This document shows positions 1 to 8,225 of a DNA stretch of 8,225 nucleotides, piece after piece. A program made the translations under genes and the position numbers. Source of the DNA: a virus (lineage: Duplodnaviria > Heunggongvirae > Uroviricota > Caudoviricetes); IMG/VR virus record IMGVR_UViG_2693429557_000018. One strand, 5' to 3'. Numbering within the stretch: the first letter of the stretch is position 1; the number at the start of each line of letters is the position of its first letter. The notes under the pieces are model-generated. The model did not search any database and was not told the origin of the DNA. It saw nothing but the letters and a program-made list of their open reading frames with translations.

Positions 1-65
1 GGTAGTGTCCGCTATTGCCAGTACACCTCATACTGAGGGTACTACGTGATAAGAAAGTAGTTACC

Positions 66-1025
66 ATGAAGATTATCGATAACCTCACCTTTGAACGGGC
101 TAATGAGAAGTTATCGCGGAATGGTATAGCTAATCGTATCCGTAAGGACATTACCATTGCTCAGGATGATTACATTACTAACCTCTTCCCGAAGATGCTG
201 AAATGCGGTCACTGTGGGGGCAATATTGCAATTCACTATAATCATGTACGAACTAAGTATGTTATTTGTCGTAACAGGGAAGAAAAGAAGATCTGCGATG
301 CTAAATCTATCCAGTACATGAGAATTGAAAAGAACATTCTACAGCTTGTCAAAAATGTAGACTTCAATAAATTGATGATGGAAGGTAAGTCGGATTCAGA
401 TTCATTGCTTGCATCATTGCGAGAAGAGTTAAGTACTTTACAGAAAGAGGCAGAAACCTATCAGGTTAAAATTAATGAACGTAAGGCAGCAGGTAAGAAA
501 GCCTCGTTACCATTAATGACGGGTTTAACTGAGGTACAGGATAGAATTGAAGAAATAGAATCTGAGATATTAAATTCAAAGAACATCAAAGAAATCCCTG
601 TATTTGATTTCGATATTAATAAAGTACTTGATCCATTGAATGTCGAGTTACGTGCAAAGTTACGGAAAGAAGTAAGATTAGTACTGAAATCTGTTAAGTA
701 CTGGGTTTTTGAAAAGCGTATATTTGTACAGTTGGAATACTTCAATGATGTCCTATCCCATACGCTTGTGATTGATAACAAGCGGGGCGGGGGTGAAGTA
801 CTACATGAGATCGTAATCTCTGAAACAAGCGGCGAGCGTGTCTACACTGTCAATGAAGAGGGCAAAACCGTTTTCATTGCCTCCGTTACATCTGGTACTG
901 ATATGTGGTCGCTTGCCATTAGCCGTACCAAAATACTTGATGATGTTGGATTGTATCTTAATCTTCTCAAGCGTGAAAAATTTGAGATCATTGTTAATGA
1001 AGATATGATTGATTGGATGGATTAA
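66..1025 (+). CDS. Large serine recombinase, C-terminal zinc-ribbon plus coiled-coil portion; N-terminal catalytic domain not encoded in frame in this window (split, frameshifted or truncated gene)
   Basis: Translation has the recombinase-type zinc-ribbon motif (FPKMLKCGHCGG ... YVICRN ... KKICD, i.e. CxxC...C...C) followed by a long coiled-coil-like stretch (LREELSTLQKEAETYQVKINERK...), the C-terminal module of large serine recombinases. First ATG is at 66 (a TTG at 15 has no RBS). There is an in-frame TAG at 3-5 and stops in the other two forward frames at 34-36 and 47-49, so no upstream reading frame continues into this ORF. Confidence 0.6.
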   Translation: MKIIDNLTFERANEKLSRNGIANRIRKDITIAQDDYITNLFPKMLKCGHCGGNIAIHYNHVRTKYVICRNREEKKICDAKSIQYMRIEKNILQLVKNVDFNKLMMEGKSDSDSLLASLREELSTLQKEAETYQVKINERKAAGKKASLPLMTGLTEVQDRIEEIESEILNSKNIKEIPVFDFDINKVLDPLNVELRAKLRKEVRLVLKSVKYWVFEKRIFVQLEYFNDVLSHTLVIDNKRGGGEVLHEIVISETSGERVYTVNEEGKTVFIASVTSGTDMWSLAISRTKILDDVGLYLNLLKREKFEIIVNEDMIDWMD

Positions 1026-1140
1026 AAGCTAATGAGAATTTATGGTCTTGTAGAATGAATTATGCGAGTTAATATTTGAACAATATATCTACGATGTCGA
1101 AATCTAACGGCATTGTAGATAGAGCAATAAAAGAGGGATT

Positions 1141-1230
1141 ATGAATTTTGGATATAACTACGCACCCGATGGGTTTAAGATTTCCGTGCAAAATACAGCA
1201 AATCATTTATATCAGCGTGTGTTAGAATAG
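1141..1230 (+). CDS. Small ORF (29 aa, MNFGYNYAPDGFKISVQNTANHLYQRVLE) of unknown function
   Basis: ATG at 1141 is preceded by a strong Shine-Dalgarno-like AAGAGGG with about 5 nt spacing; stop TAG at 1228-1230. Too short for the supplied ORF track. No similarity recognised. Confidence 0.2.
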   Translation: MNFGYNYAPDGFKISVQNTANHLYQRVLE

Positions 1231-1320
1231 TCAAGGGTAAAATTAACTTTTTTGACTTTTCAACGTTAAACCAGTACCATAGCGTCATTCACTAACGAAT
1301 AGGAGCGATGAAACCATGAG

Positions 1321-1722
1321 ATGAATTCTAAAGAGAGGATTGCCAAAATGCGTAAGAAAGAAAATAAAGCAAAAAAAGAAAAATTCCGTCAATTTTTCCC
1401 TGAGAATTATGATATTGGGATCTCATTGAATGAAGAGAATCAATTAAGGCTTTTTTCAAAGCGGAATGATTCTCAAGATGAGAGCTTATGCAAGTACGAA
1501 TTTTCCAACAAAATTAAAGTTCAGTACATTTTTTTGCCGTATTCTTCTGAAATTCAAGTTATAACAGATGAGTTTCCGCTAACGGAGGCAGGCTGTCAGG
1601 AGTGTACTCAAGCTTTCAAACATCCAATATCAATGGAACTAATTGAAGAGATAAAAGAAGCAAAATGTTCAGTTACTGGACTTGTCATTTATTCGAAACC
1701 TATACTAAAACTTATTAGCTAA
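1321..1722 (+). CDS. Hypothetical protein (133 aa) with a lysine-rich N-terminus
   Basis: Intact ORF on the same strand as its neighbours; AGGAG at 1301-1305 upstream of ATG 1321 (an alternative ATG at 1348 has GAGAGGA upstream). No recognisable motif. Confidence 0.5.
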   Translation: MNSKERIAKMRKKENKAKKEKFRQFFPENYDIGISLNEENQLRLFSKRNDSQDESLCKYEFSNKIKVQYIFLPYSSEIQVITDEFPLTEAGCQECTQAFKHPISMELIEEIKEAKCSVTGLVIYSKPILKLIS

Positions 1723-1798
1723 CACATCCAAATTGTTACGTTTTAAGTACTCCCTCACTAAATACTATAAAGTTGAATGTGAATGGGGGTACTTCAAA

Positions 1799-1972
1799 AT
1801 GGAATGGTTTACTAAATTACTTTACGAGATAGTAGGCTTTGTACTTTACATCTTTCTGATAATCCCAATATATATAGTGCTCATGTTTTTATCTATGATT
1901 TTAGTACTATTGCTTTCCCCATTAAAAATCAAATCGATAAATAAATACGTAGTAAGAAAAATGAAACGCTAA
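1799..1972 (+). CDS. Small hydrophobic (membrane) protein, about 57 aa
   Basis: The ORF track gives 1733..1972, but 1733 is a TTG with no RBS; the first ATG is at 1799 (MEWFTKLLYEIVGFVLYIFLIIPIYIVLMFLSMILVLLLSPLK...), preceded by a G-rich stretch. The product is almost entirely one or two predicted transmembrane helices with a basic C-terminus. Confidence 0.35.
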   Translation: MEWFTKLLYEIVGFVLYIFLIIPIYIVLMFLSMILVLLLSPLKIKSINKYVVRKMKR

Positions 1973-2082
1973 AAGTTTTGGTGCTATACTAATAGTATCA
2001 GAACGATAATGCGTTTTGCCTTCCGCTCCAGCTTTGAACATAAATAATATAGCGACAATAAATTTCCTTTTTAATTAAGATT

Positions 2083-2110
2083 GCCTCTCTTGCGAGAGAG
2101 GTATCTTTTT
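2083..2110 (+). terminator. Candidate rho-independent terminator
   Basis: Hairpin with 7-bp stem CCTCTCT / AGAGAGG (2084-2090 / 2095-2101) and 4-nt loop TGCG, followed immediately by TATCTTTTT; lies between the 1799..1972 ORF and the next gene. Confidence 0.5.
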
Positions 2111-2160
2111 AATTTGGATTTATAAATACAGTATACAAATACACCTATAAGGATATAGAA

Positions 2161-2346
2161 ATGAAAAAAGTAACTTTAAAGGAACGCAAACATCATGTAG
2201 TAACCGCACGTCTTAATGACGATCAAGTACTTGTACTTAACCAGCTAATTAGTAGTGGGAAGGTACAGAAAGATTCATTATCAGCCTGTGTTCAGTACTT
2301 AATTAATCAGTACATGATTTTACAGGGCGGTGGTAATGAAGAATGA
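2161..2346 (+). CDS. Small DNA-binding protein, ribbon-helix-helix-like (CopG/Arc/MobC-type fold predicted)
   Basis: 61-aa ORF with good RBS (AAGGA, 7-nt spacing). The pattern of a basic N-terminus, a short beta-strand-like segment (HHVVTARL) and two helices (DDQVLVLNQLI; SLSACVQYLINQY) is typical of RHH regulators and antitoxins. Assignment is from sequence pattern only. Confidence 0.5.
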   Translation: MKKVTLKERKHHVVTARLNDDQVLVLNQLISSGKVQKDSLSACVQYLINQYMILQGGGNEE

Positions 2347-2638
2347 CTTTGATTTAGTACAATATTTTGATGATTACACAATAGTAGGGGATATGGATTA
2401 TCACTATTTCTATTGTGTGAAGTATCAGGAAGGTTCATTAGAAGCACATTATGAACGAATTGGTGATCCAGAAGTATTAGGTACTATTACATGGAATGGA
2501 AATTACCTAATCGACGGATTACCAATGGTAATGTTTGTACTGGCTGCTGAAGATGAACATAAGGAATGTTTAAACCGTTTGCTAATCGTATGTGAGAAGG
2601 CGAGGGATGAATATAGGCTAAATGCTACTGGCCTCTAA
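2336..2638 (+). CDS. Hypothetical strongly acidic protein (about 100 aa), translationally coupled to the upstream RHH-like gene
   Basis: ATG at 2336 overlaps the end of the upstream ORF (stop 2344-2346) in a different frame; a GTG at 2330 is an alternative start. By hand count about 19 Asp/Glu versus 8 Lys/Arg. No recognisable motif. Confidence 0.5.
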   Translation: MKNDFDLVQYFDDYTIVGDMDYHYFYCVKYQEGSLEAHYERIGDPEVLGTITWNGNYLIDGLPMVMFVLAAEDEHKECLNRLLIVCEKARDEYRLNATGL

Positions 2639-2692
2639 GTAGTAGCAGACGCGATCACATGGAGTGACGCGATAACAACAAGGACGTTTGAT

Positions 2693-3247
2693 ATGAACCC
2701 TAAAATCACTTGGAGATTAATTCCAAATTCAAAACATTACTACGTATCTGAAAATGGCGATGTTTACAATGATAAAACAAAACAGTATATAGCTACGAAA
2801 AACCCATCTAATGGATACAAAAAAGTTTCTATTAATGGCAAATCACTATATGTACATGTTTTGGTTTGTACTTTATTCAATGGTGCTAAACCCATTGGAG
2901 GAAGATACACTGTAGATCATATCGACCGCGATAAAATGAATAACAAAGCAAAAAATTTACGTTGGGTAACTCAGAAGGTTAATAATTCCAATAGAAAGCA
3001 TAAAGGTACTCGTACTCAAAAGCTTACTCTAAAGCAATGGTTAATGATTGTTGGAGAGTACCTTAAAGGACAATTATCTCAATATGCAATCACTAAATGG
3101 TTTTTAAATCAAACTGGTATTAATATTTGCCCTCAGAATATAGGTAAGTTATTCAAAGGTACTACCTATTCAAAATGGTACACAACATATCTTACGAATA
3201 AGCAAAGACAAAGAATACAAAGCCTAACCATTCAACGTAAACCATAA
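2693..3247 (+). CDS. HNH homing endonuclease (NUMOD4-like N-terminus plus HNH_3-type nuclease motif), free-standing
   Basis: N-terminal WRLIPNSKHYYVSENGDVYN (NUMOD4-like), central GYKKVSINGK...YVHVLVC...TVDHIDRDKMNNKAKNLRWVTQKVN (HNH of phage homing endonucleases), basic C-terminal tail; RBS AAGGA 8 nt upstream of ATG 2693. Confidence 0.8.
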   Translation: MNPKITWRLIPNSKHYYVSENGDVYNDKTKQYIATKNPSNGYKKVSINGKSLYVHVLVCTLFNGAKPIGGRYTVDHIDRDKMNNKAKNLRWVTQKVNNSNRKHKGTRTQKLTLKQWLMIVGEYLKGQLSQYAITKWFLNQTGINICPQNIGKLFKGTTYSKWYTTYLTNKQRQRIQSLTIQRKP

Positions 3248-3250
3248 AAA

Positions 3251-3274
3251 ATGCCAGTATTCCAGTACTGGCAT
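3251..3274 (+). terminator. Perfect 9-bp inverted repeat hairpin directly after the homing endonuclease gene; weak terminator candidate
   Basis: ATGCCAGTA (3251-3259), loop TTCCAG, TACTGGCAT (3266-3274), 4 nt after the stop codon; followed by CTATTC, which is not a clean U-tract. Confidence 0.3.
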
Positions 3275-3368
3275 CTATTCAAAACTCAATGGCAATGAAG
3301 CCAAACTTATTAAATGGCCTGTAATCACTACGGGTCACGATTAATTAATTTATACAGGATTATTTATC

Positions 3369-3830
3369 ATGGCAAAAACCTATTCAACTTTTGATAACAG
3401 AAACATAAAAGCACTAATTAGCCAGTACAAGCTATATAAAGATATCCCATGCGAAGACATCAAGAACATCATGAAGGACTCAGTAGCTAAACTTAAAGTG
3501 AGAGATAAGATTAGTGTATATGATGTGTTTGCAGTATTGAGTAATGAAGATGAATTACGGAATGATTTACTATTCAATACTATCAATGCTATTAAAGTAC
3601 AACAGAATAAGAAACAAGTAAAAGAACGTATGATCAGGTACTATGGGGCAGCGATCACGGATGCAGCAAAACGAATAGAGCAGTATATGTTGGCACACCC
3701 AAACGCACTGCCAGCACCAGTATATGGACAAAGAACACTAACATATAAAGAGTTTGGTAAACTATTGGAACTACAAAAACAAGGTGACTTTATTGATGAC
3801 ATGATCGAGTACTTAAAGGGCTTGCGTTAA
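3369..3830 (+). CDS. Hypothetical protein (153 aa)
   Basis: Intact ORF with ATG at 3369 and AGGA-containing upstream region; no recognisable motif. Confidence 0.55.
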   Translation: MAKTYSTFDNRNIKALISQYKLYKDIPCEDIKNIMKDSVAKLKVRDKISVYDVFAVLSNEDELRNDLLFNTINAIKVQQNKKQVKERMIRYYGAAITDAAKRIEQYMLAHPNALPAPVYGQRTLTYKEFGKLLELQKQGDFIDDMIEYLKGLR

Positions 3831-3840
3831 TTGTAACTTA

Positions 3841-3923
3841 TTACGGCATATTACGGCATGGATGTATGCCGTAATACGGCAAAAAAAGCCCCTGAAACCC
3901 GCTATTTACCATCAATACGGCAA
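3841..3923. repeat. Cluster of TACGGCA-core repeats (iteron-like): two direct TTACGGCAT copies, one inverted copy forming a 9-bp hairpin, and two AATACGGCAA copies
   Basis: TTACGGCAT at 3841-3849 and 3851-3859; inverted ATGCCGTAA at 3866-3874 (loop GGATGT); AATACGGCAA at 3873-3882 and 3914-3923; A7 run at 3881-3887. Read directly from the sequence. Confidence 0.6.
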
Positions 3924-4293
3924 CTAAGTATAGAGATACGAAATCCATTCCATTTCATTCCATGTATTTCTTTCTCTATCAGTATTCCAAGAAACTGTGA
4001 CTTGCGTCACGAATACTACTCGTCGTGAACTCCTCGTAGTATTGGTTAGTAACGTTGCGTTTTTCTCGCCAGTACTCGAAAACCCGCAAGGCGTTACTAC
4101 TCGCTTTGCTCGATAGATGTTAGTACAGCAAATGAAGTACCTAAAGTGAATTGGTAAGTACGACATGCCCCGCCAGTTCCACAACTCTCGCTCTGGTCAT
4201 TTCCACTACTATGATGCTATTGGATAGCTACATAAAGTACTGGATCAAGTAGGCATTTTTTGTGTACAAAGAGGGAATTAAGAGAGGGATACC

Positions 4294-5037
4294 ATGAACA
4301 GAAAACAATTCATCCAGTCGCATGGTGCTACTTGTAGTAACTGGACTTGGAGTTGGTCATTTGTGAACCACGACAAGAAAATGGTTATCTTTGGTGCATG
4401 GGATGTACAAAAAGAGCAAGAAAGATCAGTCATTCTGAGGGAGCGGTGGAAAACCAAAGTTGTGGAGGGAAAGGAAAGAAAAAATCTTGGATATATTCAA
4501 GCTATTGAACACATTCAATTGATAGCTGAAGGTTATGAGCTTTACACGTTTGATATGGAGCAGGGACGAAACGATGAGAATAGAGATGTAGCTGTTATCA
4601 AACGGTTCACTCCAAAACTTGAAAAACGTTACCTTCGGAAAGAAGGAACAGTTTGGTATGCAGACTTTTTACCTAATCCATTTCCAGATGAAATTACCTC
4701 ACCTGAAAACTACGCTGAGGGTGCAAAAAAGCAAGTTACAGTAAACTCCTACGAGCGTGATCCAAAAGCACGACAGGCTTGTATTGACCATCATGGTACT
4801 TCCTGCGGGTGTTGTGAGTTTAACTTTGAGAAAGTCTATGGTGAACACGCCAAGGGCTTTATACACGTTCATCATATCAAACCGCTACACACAGTAGGCG
4901 AGGATTACGAGGTAAATCCAATTACTGATATGGTTCCACTTTGTCCAAACTGTCACGCAATGGTACATCGCGGTAACGAAGTATTAAGTGTCGAAAGTTT
5001 AAAAGCACTGTTGTTTAAAGACAGCAATAAAATTTGA
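4294..5037 (+). CDS. HNH-family nuclease with an uncharacterised ~160-aa N-terminal domain (candidate restriction/defence nuclease)
   Basis: C-terminal HNH signature CIDHHGTSCGCCEF ... HVHHIKPL ... NPITDMVPLCPNCHAMVH (Cys-rich zinc site, His-His, Asn, terminal His); strong RBS AGAGAGGG 5 nt upstream of ATG 4294. The N-terminal region (QSHGATCSNWTWSWSFVNHDKKMVIFGAWD...) is not recognisable to me. Confidence 0.8.
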   Translation: MNRKQFIQSHGATCSNWTWSWSFVNHDKKMVIFGAWDVQKEQERSVILRERWKTKVVEGKERKNLGYIQAIEHIQLIAEGYELYTFDMEQGRNDENRDVAVIKRFTPKLEKRYLRKEGTVWYADFLPNPFPDEITSPENYAEGAKKQVTVNSYERDPKARQACIDHHGTSCGCCEFNFEKVYGEHAKGFIHVHHIKPLHTVGEDYEVNPITDMVPLCPNCHAMVHRGNEVLSVESLKALLFKDSNKI

Positions 5038-5050
5038 ATTTATTTTAGAC

Positions 5051-5079
5051 TTGATACGACATACTTGAAAAGTTATGAA
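5051..5079 (+). promoter_or_regulatory. Candidate sigma70-type promoter for the 5120..5593 gene
   Basis: TTGATA (5051-5056), 17-nt spacer, TATGAA (5074-5079), about 40 nt upstream of ATG 5120. Pattern match only. Confidence 0.25.
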
Positions 5080-5119
5080 TACAATATGCTTTAAATTAGA
5101 CATGTAAGTTGAGAGAAAA

Positions 5120-5593
5120 ATGAGCATAACAACAATAGCAGCTACATATAAAGATGTGTTAACTATTGCTTTTTCGGCGTTGTCATTTATTATTGCATGT
5201 ACTTCCTTATACTTCTCCGGTAGGGCAGCATGGCATGATAGATCAAGGCTAAAAATAACAGCTGACCTCGTCTACGAGTCTTTTGATGAGGAACCTTATA
5301 AAATCGAGGTGATAGTGATCAATGTTGGTAGGCGTGATGCAGTTTTGGAAGGGATGCTTTGCCATTATGAAAAAGGCATTAGGAGCCATTCATCTCCAAA
5401 AGAGAGCATTGTTATTAAAGAAAAGCAAAGAAAAAAATTTGAATTGGTAAGCTCAGACTTAGTCACGATAGATAATGAATGTGATATTTGTCATTTAGAA
5501 GATATAACTATTTTAGATGTGGAGGGGAATGAACATAAAATCCCTAACTCTCACAGACTCATTGCATTACTTAAGCAAGATAAAAAGACTTAA
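5120..5593 (+). CDS. Membrane-anchored hypothetical protein (157 aa; one N-terminal transmembrane helix)
   Basis: Intact ORF 82 nt downstream of the HNH nuclease gene; N-terminal hydrophobic segment (LTIAFSALSFIIACTSLYF), then a soluble domain with a CDICH motif; GAGAG upstream of the ATG. Confidence 0.55.
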   Translation: MSITTIAATYKDVLTIAFSALSFIIACTSLYFSGRAAWHDRSRLKITADLVYESFDEEPYKIEVIVINVGRRDAVLEGMLCHYEKGIRSHSSPKESIVIKEKQRKKFELVSSDLVTIDNECDICHLEDITILDVEGNEHKIPNSHRLIALLKQDKKT

Positions 5594-5632
5594 GAATAAT
5601 ATTTTTTGGAATGTAAGGTAAATGTTAGATGC

Positions 5633-5673
5633 CACTATAGATTGAGGGTTAGAACTACTAACCCACTATAGGG
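5633..5673 (+). promoter_or_regulatory. Two copies of a T7-class phage promoter core (CACTATAG / CACTATAGGG) flanking a 7-bp inverted repeat
   Basis: CACTATAG at 5633-5640 and CACTATAGGG at 5664-5673 (identical to T7 promoter positions -7 to +3); between them GGGTTAG (5646-5652) / CTAACCC (5658-5664) form an inverted repeat with loop AACTA. The -17 to -8 region does not match T7 itself. Confidence 0.2.
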
Positions 5674-5849
5674 TTTACGAGATGATAAGAATGGAATTTA
5701 ACACCTACGATGGTGATATATATTACTTCCTCTATTTATATAGGAGGTACGAAAGGGGGAGTACTTTAATGAAGACCTTATAAATCTTAATGTTGAGATG
5801 TTAGTTATAGCGGTGAGGATACCCCACCGTCTATTGGGAGTTGTGGACT

Positions 5850-6518
5850 CTAATTAGAGAAAACGAATAAGTTATTCATGTCCTTTTTCAAGGTTGCATG
5901 TGCTTCTATTAAACTATCAAATGTATCTACTAATAACTTTCCATAGCTGACATTGTAATGATATCTATCATGAATGTCATTTATATCAAAACTTATCGCT
6001 TCCCTCAATGTTCCTAAAGCAATTTGATTACTGAAGAAATAATTATTGAATATAGCTTCATCTTTTGGCGATACTTTCCAAAAGGTAAGTGATTGCAATT
6101 CGCTTTTTAATGAGGCTAACTTAATGTTTAATAGATCGATAACTTCTCGTTCAGTTTTAACTAAATGTGCGAAATTTTTTGGTTCTATATCTGGTTCAGT
6201 ATTGTTAAGGTTGCATATATTTTCATATGTTTTCAACATCTCCAACGAAAAAAGATCGCAATTAGTCCAGAACTTAGTAACTTGATTTAAAGCATTTTCC
6301 TTTATTTTAGTTTGAAACCAATTTTTAGCGTTCCATGCTGCATATAGGGCTGCTCCAGCCATAATGAGATTGGCAATAGAACTAACCCAGTCACTAACCG
6401 ATCCCCACTCGAAACCTTCAGAACCAACAAAGAGTGATTTTATTAGTACTAAAATTACAACAACCAGTAATACTGCTACGGTCGATAAAAGAACGATATT
6501 TAATTTTCTACAATCCAT
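5850..6518 (-). CDS. Hypothetical membrane protein (222 aa; two N-terminal transmembrane segments, helical C-terminal domain)
   Basis: Intact minus-strand ORF, AT-rich; N-terminus LLSTVAVLLVVVILVLI plus a second hydrophobic segment VSSIANLIMAGAALYAAW. Convergent with the 5120..5593 gene. No recognisable catalytic motif. Confidence 0.55.
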   Translation of the reverse strand: MDCRKLNIVLLSTVAVLLVVVILVLIKSLFVGSEGFEWGSVSDWVSSIANLIMAGAALYAAWNAKNWFQTKIKENALNQVTKFWTNCDLFSLEMLKTYENICNLNNTEPDIEPKNFAHLVKTEREVIDLLNIKLASLKSELQSLTFWKVSPKDEAIFNNYFFSNQIALGTLREAISFDINDIHDRYHYNVSYGKLLVDTFDSLIEAHATLKKDMNNLFVFSN

Positions 6519-6592
6519 CGAAAGTAGTTCCTGAACGCATTAAAGGGGCAAATACTTTACCATCCGAAACACAATCAAGTACACTACCCGTT

Positions 6593-6645
6593 CACGTACT
6601 GCTCACATGTTGGGTTTGTTATTTTGTTGGGGTGAGCAGTACGTG
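6593..6645. repeat. Perfect 14-bp inverted repeat with a 25-nt loop containing a direct GTTGGG repeat
   Basis: CACGTACTGCTCAC (6593-6606) and GTGAGCAGTACGTG (6632-6645) are exact reverse complements; loop ATGTTGGGTTTGTTATTTTGTTGGG. Lies 6 nt beyond the stop of the 6651..6962 gene, at the AT-rich to GC-balanced transition. No adjacent U-tract on either strand. Confidence 0.7.
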
Positions 6646-6650
6646 TATCC

Positions 6651-6962
6651 TCAGAAGGGTAGTTCCCCCTGATCACAGAACCAATCACCTTCTTCACTGC
6701 TTTGATTCATCCGGTACTCAGCAGATAGATATGCTAACCCATCAATAACACTTATTAGTGGTGTTTCACAGGTAAGTACAAAACAATCTCTCTCTATAGT
6801 ACCTAACCAGTATTCCCTGTACTGATTCTGGAAGAATACCCTATCCCCATAATGAAATTCTGTTAGTGCAGATCCCCAATAACACACGGTTGCCCAGCGA
6901 CCGTTATGTGAGAACTTCTGAACCCCTCGCGTAATGGATGGATCATAGCCGTCTTTGCTCAT
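6651..6962 (-). CDS. Hypothetical protein (103 aa), probably SOS (LexA) regulated
   Basis: Minus-strand ORF with strong RBS (GAGGAGGG, about 6 nt spacing) and a near-consensus LexA box 22 nt upstream of the ATG; visibly higher GC than the upstream cargo. No recognisable motif in the product. Confidence 0.6.
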   Translation of the reverse strand: MSKDGYDPSITRGVQKFSHNGRWATVCYWGSALTEFHYGDRVFFQNQYREYWLGTIERDCFVLTCETPLISVIDGLAYLSAEYRMNQSSEEGDWFCDQGELPF

Positions 6963-6983
6963 TTGTTACCCTCCTCTATGTAT

Positions 6984-7003
6984 TACTGTATATATGTACA
7001 GTA
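6984..7003. promoter_or_regulatory. LexA (SOS) box, gammaproteobacterial type
   Basis: TACTGTATATATGTACAGTA = CTGT-N8-ACAG, 19 of 20 matches to the E. coli consensus TACTGTATATATATACAGTA; sits in the promoter region of the 6651..6962 minus-strand gene and in the divergent intergenic region. Confidence 0.7.
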
Positions 7004-7072
7004 TTGCAGTCAGTTTCCCAAAAATCCAGCACCCCTTTGTTTACCACTTTGAATGATTAATTCTATTGTAAT

Positions 7073-7089
7073 GATCAATAAAATTGATC
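7073..7089. promoter_or_regulatory. GATC-containing palindromic operator-like site (GATCAAT-aaa-ATTGATC), with a third related half-site downstream
   Basis: Perfect 7-bp inverted repeat with 3-bp spacer at 7073-7089; AATGATCAAT is repeated at 7070-7079 and 7113-7122; three GATC sites within about 47 bp, upstream of the 7155..7706 gene. Confidence 0.3.
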
Positions 7090-7154
7090 TATTTAATTGC
7101 CAATGTTTTAAAAATGATCAATTATCAATAACTTAAAGCGTAACGAGCAAAGTT

Positions 7155-7706
7155 ATGAACATTGATAATTGGGCAATACCGATAACAAGTTTGGGTGGTC
7201 AGTTGCTGGGGGTTGAGTTGGTCAGCCATGTAGAACGCGAGGGAATCAGGCAGATCGGCCTATGGGAAGAAGAAGTACTTCATGGGCAACTAATGCTTAT
7301 TGAAAGCAAGGCGGCATGGTTCAGGGATAACGGTTTGTATTGTGTGATTACTACTGGCCGTGGTGAACCATACGAGTACTTACCATTCCTTCGGCAGATG
7401 ACAAGGGATATGAAAGTACATAACCAGCAGTGGCTTGATGATCTCGGTGTACATGGTGGTTCTGCTATTCCTCTGGTTACAGGTGATTTCGAGGTTGCCC
7501 GATTAAATAGAAGGTACACAGAAGAGAACATTGACCGTCTGATCTTTCCAGTACTCATAAAAAGCATTCGCCAGTACTGCGAGAAGGTGATCGTACCCGT
7601 CAGAGATAAAACGTATTACCCAATTCTCAGAGAGGCCGGTGTATGGGCGGTACAGGGAGAGTTCAGGCCAATGCGTTTTGAGCAATGTGAAAAATTAATA
7701 GGATAA
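7155..7706 (+). CDS. Degenerate EAL-like domain protein (183 aa), probably catalytically inactive
   Basis: Motifs resembling the EAL fold in the right order: GVELVSH in place of the EAL motif, LDDLGVHGGS resembling DDFGTGYSS, GVWAVQGEFRPMRF resembling the QG-x-x-F-x-P C-terminal motif. The domain is shorter than a canonical EAL domain and key residues look substituted. Pattern match by eye only. Confidence 0.5.
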   Translation: MNIDNWAIPITSLGGQLLGVELVSHVEREGIRQIGLWEEEVLHGQLMLIESKAAWFRDNGLYCVITTGRGEPYEYLPFLRQMTRDMKVHNQQWLDDLGVHGGSAIPLVTGDFEVARLNRRYTEENIDRLIFPVLIKSIRQYCEKVIVPVRDKTYYPILREAGVWAVQGEFRPMRFEQCEKLIG

Positions 7707-7711
7707 CAATA

Positions 7712-8074
7712 ATGAAAAAATTACTAATTGGGTTACTGATTGCCCTTAGTACTGGATGTACTACTACGCACAGCTTCATGGATAAAGCTTACGTTGGCTA
7801 TGTAGATGACAAGGCCGTAGTACTGTTTGATGCAGGAACACGTAATGGGGTGAAGTACTACCGTCCTCAGTTCCAGAGTGATTGCGGTCGCATCTATAAC
7901 AAGATCTATCATGATGACAATACAAGTACTGGATGCCTCATACGAGATTCCCGCATTGCTGAACTACATCCCTATAGAGAGCATGTAAGTAAGGTAGTAC
8001 CACATCAGACCGATAGTGTTCACGATTGGTTAGAAGGGGTCAATTCACCATCCCATATCCTCGACAATCTATAG
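7712..8074 (+). CDS. Probable lipoprotein (120 aa)
   Basis: Signal peptide MKKLLIGLLIALSTGC with lipobox-like LSTGC (Cys at +1); starts 5 nt after the EAL-like gene stop with AGGAT RBS, so probably in the same operon. Confidence 0.65.
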   Translation: MKKLLIGLLIALSTGCTTTHSFMDKAYVGYVDDKAVVLFDAGTRNGVKYYRPQFQSDCGRIYNKIYHDDNTSTGCLIRDSRIAELHPYREHVSKVVPHQTDSVHDWLEGVNSPSHILDNL

Positions 8075-8081
8075 GGTACGT

Positions 8082-8225
8082 ATGGGAAAGGTAATGGTGA
8101 TTTTGTTAGTACTGGCTGGGGTACTCTTCAACATTGCAGGTGAGGATGCACCCCAGCCACAGTACACGGACAATGAGTGGATTTGCCCCTATATTTCCAG
8201 ACATCTGTTATCACTTAACCCATTA
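8082..8225 (+). CDS. 3'-truncated ORF with a hydrophobic N-terminus (signal peptide or membrane anchor)
   Basis: ATG at 8082 (second in-frame ATG at 8094) starts 7 nt after the lipoprotein stop; translation MGKVMVILLVLAGVLFNIAGEDAPQPQYTDNEWICPYISRHLLSLNPL runs open to the window end. Confidence 0.4.
   Translation, partial: MGKVMVILLVLAGVLFNIAGEDAPQPQYTDNEWICPYISRHLLSLNPL

Follow-up and report, generated by a model that had tools for sequence, protein, structure and literature searches.

How does a phage-like stretch of DNA come to open with a reading frame for the zinc-ribbon part of a large serine recombinase alone, and where is the catalytic part of that enzyme? The window analysed here, a stretch of 8,225 bases, is the whole of contig CXDR01000158.1 of the Shigella sonnei assembly GCA_001260135.1. 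It is bounded by IS600 on the left and by IS2 on the right, and two multi-copy insertion sequence (IS) ends in these positions give it the shape of a short-read contig. In large serine recombinases, of which the phage serine integrases of phiC31, Bxb1 and Listeria A118/LI are examples, the serine nucleophile resides in the catalytic domain, the att half-sites are bound by the recombinase and zinc-ribbon domains, and synapsis and direction are under the control of the coiled coil. A sequence-only reading of the window had proposed that the catalytic domain, if present upstream, lies in another frame or in a separate gene, and had named a frameshifted or decayed integrase, a sequencing error or a stand-alone accessory protein as possible causes.

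The recombinase reading frame at the start of the window

The stops on which that reading was built are present, with TAG at 3-5 in frame 3, TGA at 34-36 in frame 1 and TGA at 47-49 in frame 2. Their occurrence within 50 nucleotides is unremarkable, since about 31% of random 50-mers of the window's base composition have stops in all three frames, and it is the truncated domain architecture rather than the stops that is the informative feature of the window start. For the recombinase gene only the frame-3 TAG is relevant, and this stop is part of the IS600 right terminal repeat; the stops of frames 1 and 2 have no bearing on the gene. Frame 3 has no stop between base 6 and the terminator at 1023-1025; the list of open reading frames gives it as 15..1025 with a TTG start, and its first ATG is at base 66. 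The 319-aa ORF opened by this ATG matches S. sonnei protein entries exactly (WP_252859387.1) and is also the gene called on the window's own record (L007).

The protein read from ATG 66 carries a Zn_ribbon_recom domain (Pfam PF13408) at residues 41-95, with an E-value of 5.6e-10 and a score of 39.9 against a cut-off of 25.3, and neither a Resolvase nor a Recombinase domain was detected by Pfam in the product of the window ORF. In PHROGs the window product falls on positions 342-542 of phrog_95, a phage serine-integrase profile of 651 positions (E 4.8e-19). Coiled-coil families gave sub-threshold Pfam matches only, over residues ~75-176 with E-values of 0.007-0.1, so the assignment of the frame to a zinc-ribbon/coiled-coil C-terminal part holds well for the zinc ribbon and as probable for the coiled coil. 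Judged by its predicted domain content, the window encodes the C-terminal module only of a large serine recombinase. The coordinates of this module and of the other features of the window are collected in Table 1.

Table 1. Features of the 8,225-base window, with positions counted from its first base.
Feature	Position	Strand	Basis or remark
IS600 (IS3 family) right terminal inverted repeat, last 30 bases	1..30	+	ends ...GTACACCTCA at base 30
TAC, right-hand copy of 3-bp target-site duplication	31..33	+	single TAC in intact allele
Recombinase gene, 3' 995 nt	31..1025	+	in frame from base 33; residues 315-644 and stop
Tail of second, degenerate recombinase-domain-like repeat	33..125	+	intact residues ~281-345; contains IS insertion point
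ORF as in public records	66..1025	+	319 aa, WP_252859387.1, 'recombinase zinc ribbon domain-containing protein'
Zinc beta-ribbon, four Cys, C-G-H-C ... I-C-x9-C	186..350	+	PF13408 and translation
Probable coiled-coil insert after zinc ribbon	408..593	+	weak family matches and heptad-like sequence
HNH endonuclease genes	2693-3247 and 4294-5037		HNH_3 with NUMOD4-like N-terminus, E 9e-13; HNH, E 3.3e-6
IS2 terminal 48 bases, contig end	8178..8225	-	100% match to annotated IS2 ends

The IS600 terminus at the left edge

Bases 1-36 of the window are 100% identical to the sequence that lies directly 3' of annotated IS600 transposase genes in E. coli records. When bases 1-1300 were compared by megablast with complete E. 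coli genomes only positions 1-36/43 were matched, in 156 genomes. The right end of IS600, reading ...CCTCA, was placed at window base 30 by means of a tail-to-tail pair of IS600 copies (L001). A reference copy of 1264 bp (L002) runs from TGAGG to CCTCA, with the ends TGAGGTAGCC and GTACACCTCA, and is likewise flanked by a 3-bp repeat. The terminal inverted repeats of the disrupting copy have the TG...CA form of IS600, its right end being seen in the window and its left end, TGAGGTAGCC..., at the terminus of the second contig (L008) described below. The body of this copy falls between the two contigs and the window holds its terminal 30 bases only; the orfA/orfB transposase with its programmed -1 frameshift was seen in the reference copies only.

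At three IS600 sites the 3-bp duplication is followed by TGA, namely TAC followed by TGAGGG (window 31-38), TAC followed by TGATGA (L002 3031-3038) and ACG followed by TGATCG (L003 ~5915-5930). The TGA after the duplication resembles the TGAGG end of IS600 itself and may reflect a target preference.

The intact allele in other S. sonnei

The gene is uninterrupted across the IS600 junction in other S. sonnei contigs. Window positions 31-8177 correspond to positions 261-8407 of one of these (L004) at 99.99% identity, with a single mismatch in 8147 bases, and positions 31-549 correspond to 6180-6698 of another (L003) at 100% identity. The comparison with intact homologues that the sequence-only reading had advised thus gave an allele that is continuous through the junction, where it reads CAATG-TAC-TGAGGG with a single TAC; the uninterrupted junction without the IS is CAATGTACTGAGGGTACTACG. 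Among the S. sonnei proteins that are 100% identical to the window product, one extends further upstream (P0001) and another has the true N-terminus (P0008), and the joined pieces make up a gene of 1935 nt that encodes 644 aa. Residues 315-644 of the encoded protein match the window product at 100% identity, and the ATG at base 66 is an internal Met, residue 326. The exact 644-aa protein (P0034, an S. sonnei 'recombinase family protein') was present in 659 blocks of the collection, including the complete S. sonnei chromosome CP061367.1.

The intact protein contains a Resolvase domain (PF00239) at residues 5-158, a Recombinase domain (PF07508) at 188-266 (E 1.3e-13) and a Zn_ribbon_recom domain (PF13408) at 367-420, all by Pfam. 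This is the canonical order of large serine recombinases, with which it also shares the N-terminal Y-x-R-V-S motif, here YERVSS, and a match to phage integrase PHROG 95 (phrog_95, E 7.8e-50), as well as the location of its gene at the outer border of an integrated, prophage-like element. It differs from them in an extra segment before the zinc ribbon. Residues ~188-266 align to residues ~281-345 with 32% identity (E 2e-11), and the integrase is accordingly predicted to have a second, degenerate recombinase-domain, helix-turn-helix-like segment between the Recombinase domain and the zinc ribbon. The IS600 insertion point falls inside this second repeat. A search of solved structures by sequence with the intact protein returned no match at E <= 0.01. 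The gene is a member of the large serine recombinases and the window ORF alone is an incomplete member, since the catalytic and first recombinase domains are missing from this gene fragment.

The N-terminal half on a second contig

Looking upstream for the resolvase catalytic and recombinase domains, as the sequence-only reading had recommended, led beyond IS600 to contig CXDR01000184.1 (L008) of the same assembly, which carries yeaI-yeaH-yeaG and then a 316-aa N-terminal half with both the Resolvase and the Recombinase domain. The proposal that the catalytic domain lies elsewhere is therefore correct as regards a separate ORF and wrong as regards another frame. This contig terminates in ...CAATGTAC followed directly by TGAGGTAGCC..., the left end of IS600, and the same terminus taken at other extents reads CAATGTAC followed by TGAGGTAGCCTGAG, CAATGTAC followed by TGAGGTAGCCTGAGTTTAACGGACACTCCTTCCT, and ...ccgtcaatgtac followed by tgaggtagcctgagtttaacggacactccttcct. 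The IS600 copy has the orientation of the recombinase gene.

The sequence of the N-terminal fragment had been deduced by reading through into the IS600 left end before the databases were consulted. From the 3-bp duplication the upstream half was predicted to read ...AAT GTA C in the gene and to continue with TG AGG TAG in the IS, giving a product of 316 aa that ends in NVLR at a stop supplied by the IS600 left end. Exactly this sequence was later found in S. sonnei (P0020, which is WP_077802103.1 / CSR55032.1). The TAC triplet thus stands at both IS600 junctions and once in the intact allele, which identifies a genuine IS600 transposition.

Insertion of IS600 and alternative explanations

We consider it very probable that IS600 split an S. 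sonnei prophage integrase gene and that the window ORF is its back half, an ordinary IS-made pseudogene. IS600 would have transposed into codon 314 of the 1935-nt large-serine-recombinase gene, after nucleotide 940, duplicating its TAC target. This would have split off a 316-residue N-terminal piece, with the catalytic Ser11, the Resolvase domain, the first Recombinase domain and the NVLR-stop end, from a 330-codon C-terminal piece with the zinc ribbon, the putative coiled coil and the C-terminal region. The assembler, working with short reads, did not bridge the multi-copy IS, and the halves consequently lie on different contigs; we infer that a single IS600 copy of 1.26 kb links the two. The insertion has the terminal sequence, the TG...CA ends, the 3-bp duplication and the S. 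sonnei host of other pseudogene-making IS600 insertions in Shigella, and departs from them in nothing unusual, the 30 bases of IS600 in the window being what was left where the assembler stopped in the repeat. An expansion of IS1, IS2, IS4, IS600 and IS911 is common to all Shigella species (PMC7373316), and S. sonnei, with high recent IS activity, has many strain-specific pseudogenes (PMC7373316).

A frameshift or point nonsense mutation, with the catalytic domain immediately upstream in another frame, has next to no likelihood. Such a cause gains some plausibility from relatives of the gene in other genera, which at the same yeaG locus are divided into pieces of 284+319 aa and 227+431 aa, the 284+319 case coming from a long-read assembly in which yeaG itself is in three pieces. 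However, the sequence upstream of base 31 of the window is IS600 and holds no recombinase sequence, which in effect excludes this cause; the coding frame is unbroken as far as the IS junction, intact copies are collinear across it, and the N-terminal half terminates in the IS600 left end on another contig. The sequencing error that had been entertained, or a chimeric assembly that joined an IS600 end to a gene intact in the isolate, is very unlikely as well. The window is indeed a short-read contig with repeats at both ends, but two independent contig ends of one assembly bear the complementary ends of IS600, placed at an identical target position, together with the common duplication that is the signature of real transposition, and CXDR01000158.1 and CXDR01000184.1 are each listed under two samples. 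A somewhat larger, though still small, chance attaches to an insertion of IS600 as described that was followed by recombination between IS600 copies, through inversion or deletion, which moved the halves apart. The median of ~286 IS insertions per S. sonnei chromosome (PMC7373316) and the lack of a link between the two contigs in the assembly would allow for this, but both junctions have been kept with their matching TAC, as would most simply be expected of an insertion left in its original arrangement, and no sign of rearrangement was seen.

It is very unlikely that the ORF is an independent gene for an accessory protein made of zinc ribbon and coiled coil, such as a regulator or the partner of a recombinase encoded elsewhere. 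RefSeq does annotate WP_252859387.1 as a protein, ATG 66 is preceded by a weak purine-rich stretch, and read-through transcription from IS600 is conceivable. Against this, the 319-aa product matches residues 326-644 of the integrase at 100% identity, so that its start codon is an internal Met, the frame is open upstream of ATG 66 as far as the IS, and a consensus scan found no promoter-like site on the + strand upstream of position 346. All shorter homologues found are fragments that adjoin an N-terminal fragment at the same locus; two of them that had been considered as independent genes (P0004, 319 aa, and P0011, 431 aa) proved to be pieces of genes split at the yeaG locus. The exact 319-aa form was found on two contigs only, the second of which (L006) has no IS600 at the site. 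This 13-kb sequence was examined as a bridge across the gap and set aside, being a gapped scaffold with 3647 N in which the short ORF was called after a run of Ns.

Returning to the disruption by IS600, neither fragment would be expected, from its domain content, to recombine DNA alone. With the catalytic, DNA-binding and coiled-coil parts separated, recombination should be lost; the integrase is almost certainly dead and the element is probably no longer excisable by its own integrase and locked in place. The description of a decayed integrase in an immobilised element came near the truth in its first part, missing IS600 insertion as the cause, and its second part would be the probable consequence of that insertion.

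The prophage-like element beside yeaG

In the S. sonnei locus homology to E. coli ends 18 bp upstream of the yeaG start codon (L011 9919-10001), and the ATG of the integrase follows ~60 bp into the insert from its left edge. A gene at the extreme left edge of an insert is what is expected of an integrase next to its att site, and the genomic context is consistent with a role in attP x attB recombination. The G+C content of the whole window is 37%, a value in keeping with DNA of foreign or phage origin in an enterobacterium. The cargo of the element consists of small ORFs, mostly without a PHROGs or Pfam function, the two HNH endonuclease genes of Table 1 being the exceptions. A GpA-type terminase gene lies ~3 kb beyond the right end of the window along the element, which for this reason looks like a prophage or a prophage remnant. 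At the right end, the sequence of other S. sonnei (L004, L013) runs on past the equivalent of window position 8177 through an ORF of 85-89 aa; since this small ORF is whole there, it was cut by IS2 in the strain of the window.

Two E. coli genomes (H65, H66) have related serine recombinases at this yeaG-proximal site, as do other enterobacterial contigs (L009, L010) whose cargo differs, suggesting a family of elements directed to this intergenic position. When the window was compared by megablast with complete E. coli genomes, plasmids and phages, the two IS ends accounted for most of the matches, with weaker and short internal matches at 5759-6407 (82%) and 7838-7930 (86%). With so few internal matches, the element is absent from these collections or only distantly represented in them. 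The sole sizeable internal match in complete E. coli genomes, at 5759-6407, is to a hypothetical protein gene of strain AREA_C483, and this strain also has a related recombinase next to yeaG.

Other breaks in the integrase gene

The gene for the 644-aa integrase is also found broken, at different points, in further S. sonnei assemblies (P0014, P0021, P0022, P0050, P0051). One product reads through into the left end of IS600 (EVA-stop) after codon 227, with a partner contig that begins at codon 228, and another reads out of the right end of IS600 (VVSAIASTPH) before codon 503. IS1 lies after codon 426, as confirmed by DNA, and another element is found at codon 447. Records with such breaks include L004 1-260 and L015 4279-4325, with additional contig breaks close to codons 184-199, 342-352 and 478-493. 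Public assemblies show at least five independent insertions in the gene, with IS600 at codons ~227, 314 and ~502, IS1 at codon 426 and the other element at codon 447.

It is unlikely that IS elements inactivate the integrase gene of S. sonnei by preference or under selection. Were it true, recurrent loss of the enzyme would fix the prophage-like element beside yeaG in the chromosome, which amounts to domestication. Given the thousands of isolates that have been sequenced, the repeated breaks may be no more than the neutral decay of a dispensable gene. Still less likely is an expression of the C-terminal fragment by read-through from IS600 in which it interferes with related integrases.

Implications

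The event is of a kind already known, one strain-specific, IS-mediated gene loss in S. sonnei, and both halves of the gene were already in RefSeq. WP_252859387.1 (C-terminal, 319 aa) and WP_077802103.1 (N-terminal, 316 aa) match the two halves exactly and are annotated there as ordinary proteins, not as halves of one gene; together they represent a single integrase disrupted by IS600 and are best handled as a pseudogene. More generally, a domain-truncated ORF at the start of a draft contig calls for a search of the contig end for an IS terminus, ahead of any proposal of a frameshift or of a new split protein. For S. sonnei itself the IS600 insertion, of little importance beyond annotation, probably fixes the prophage-like island next to yeaG.
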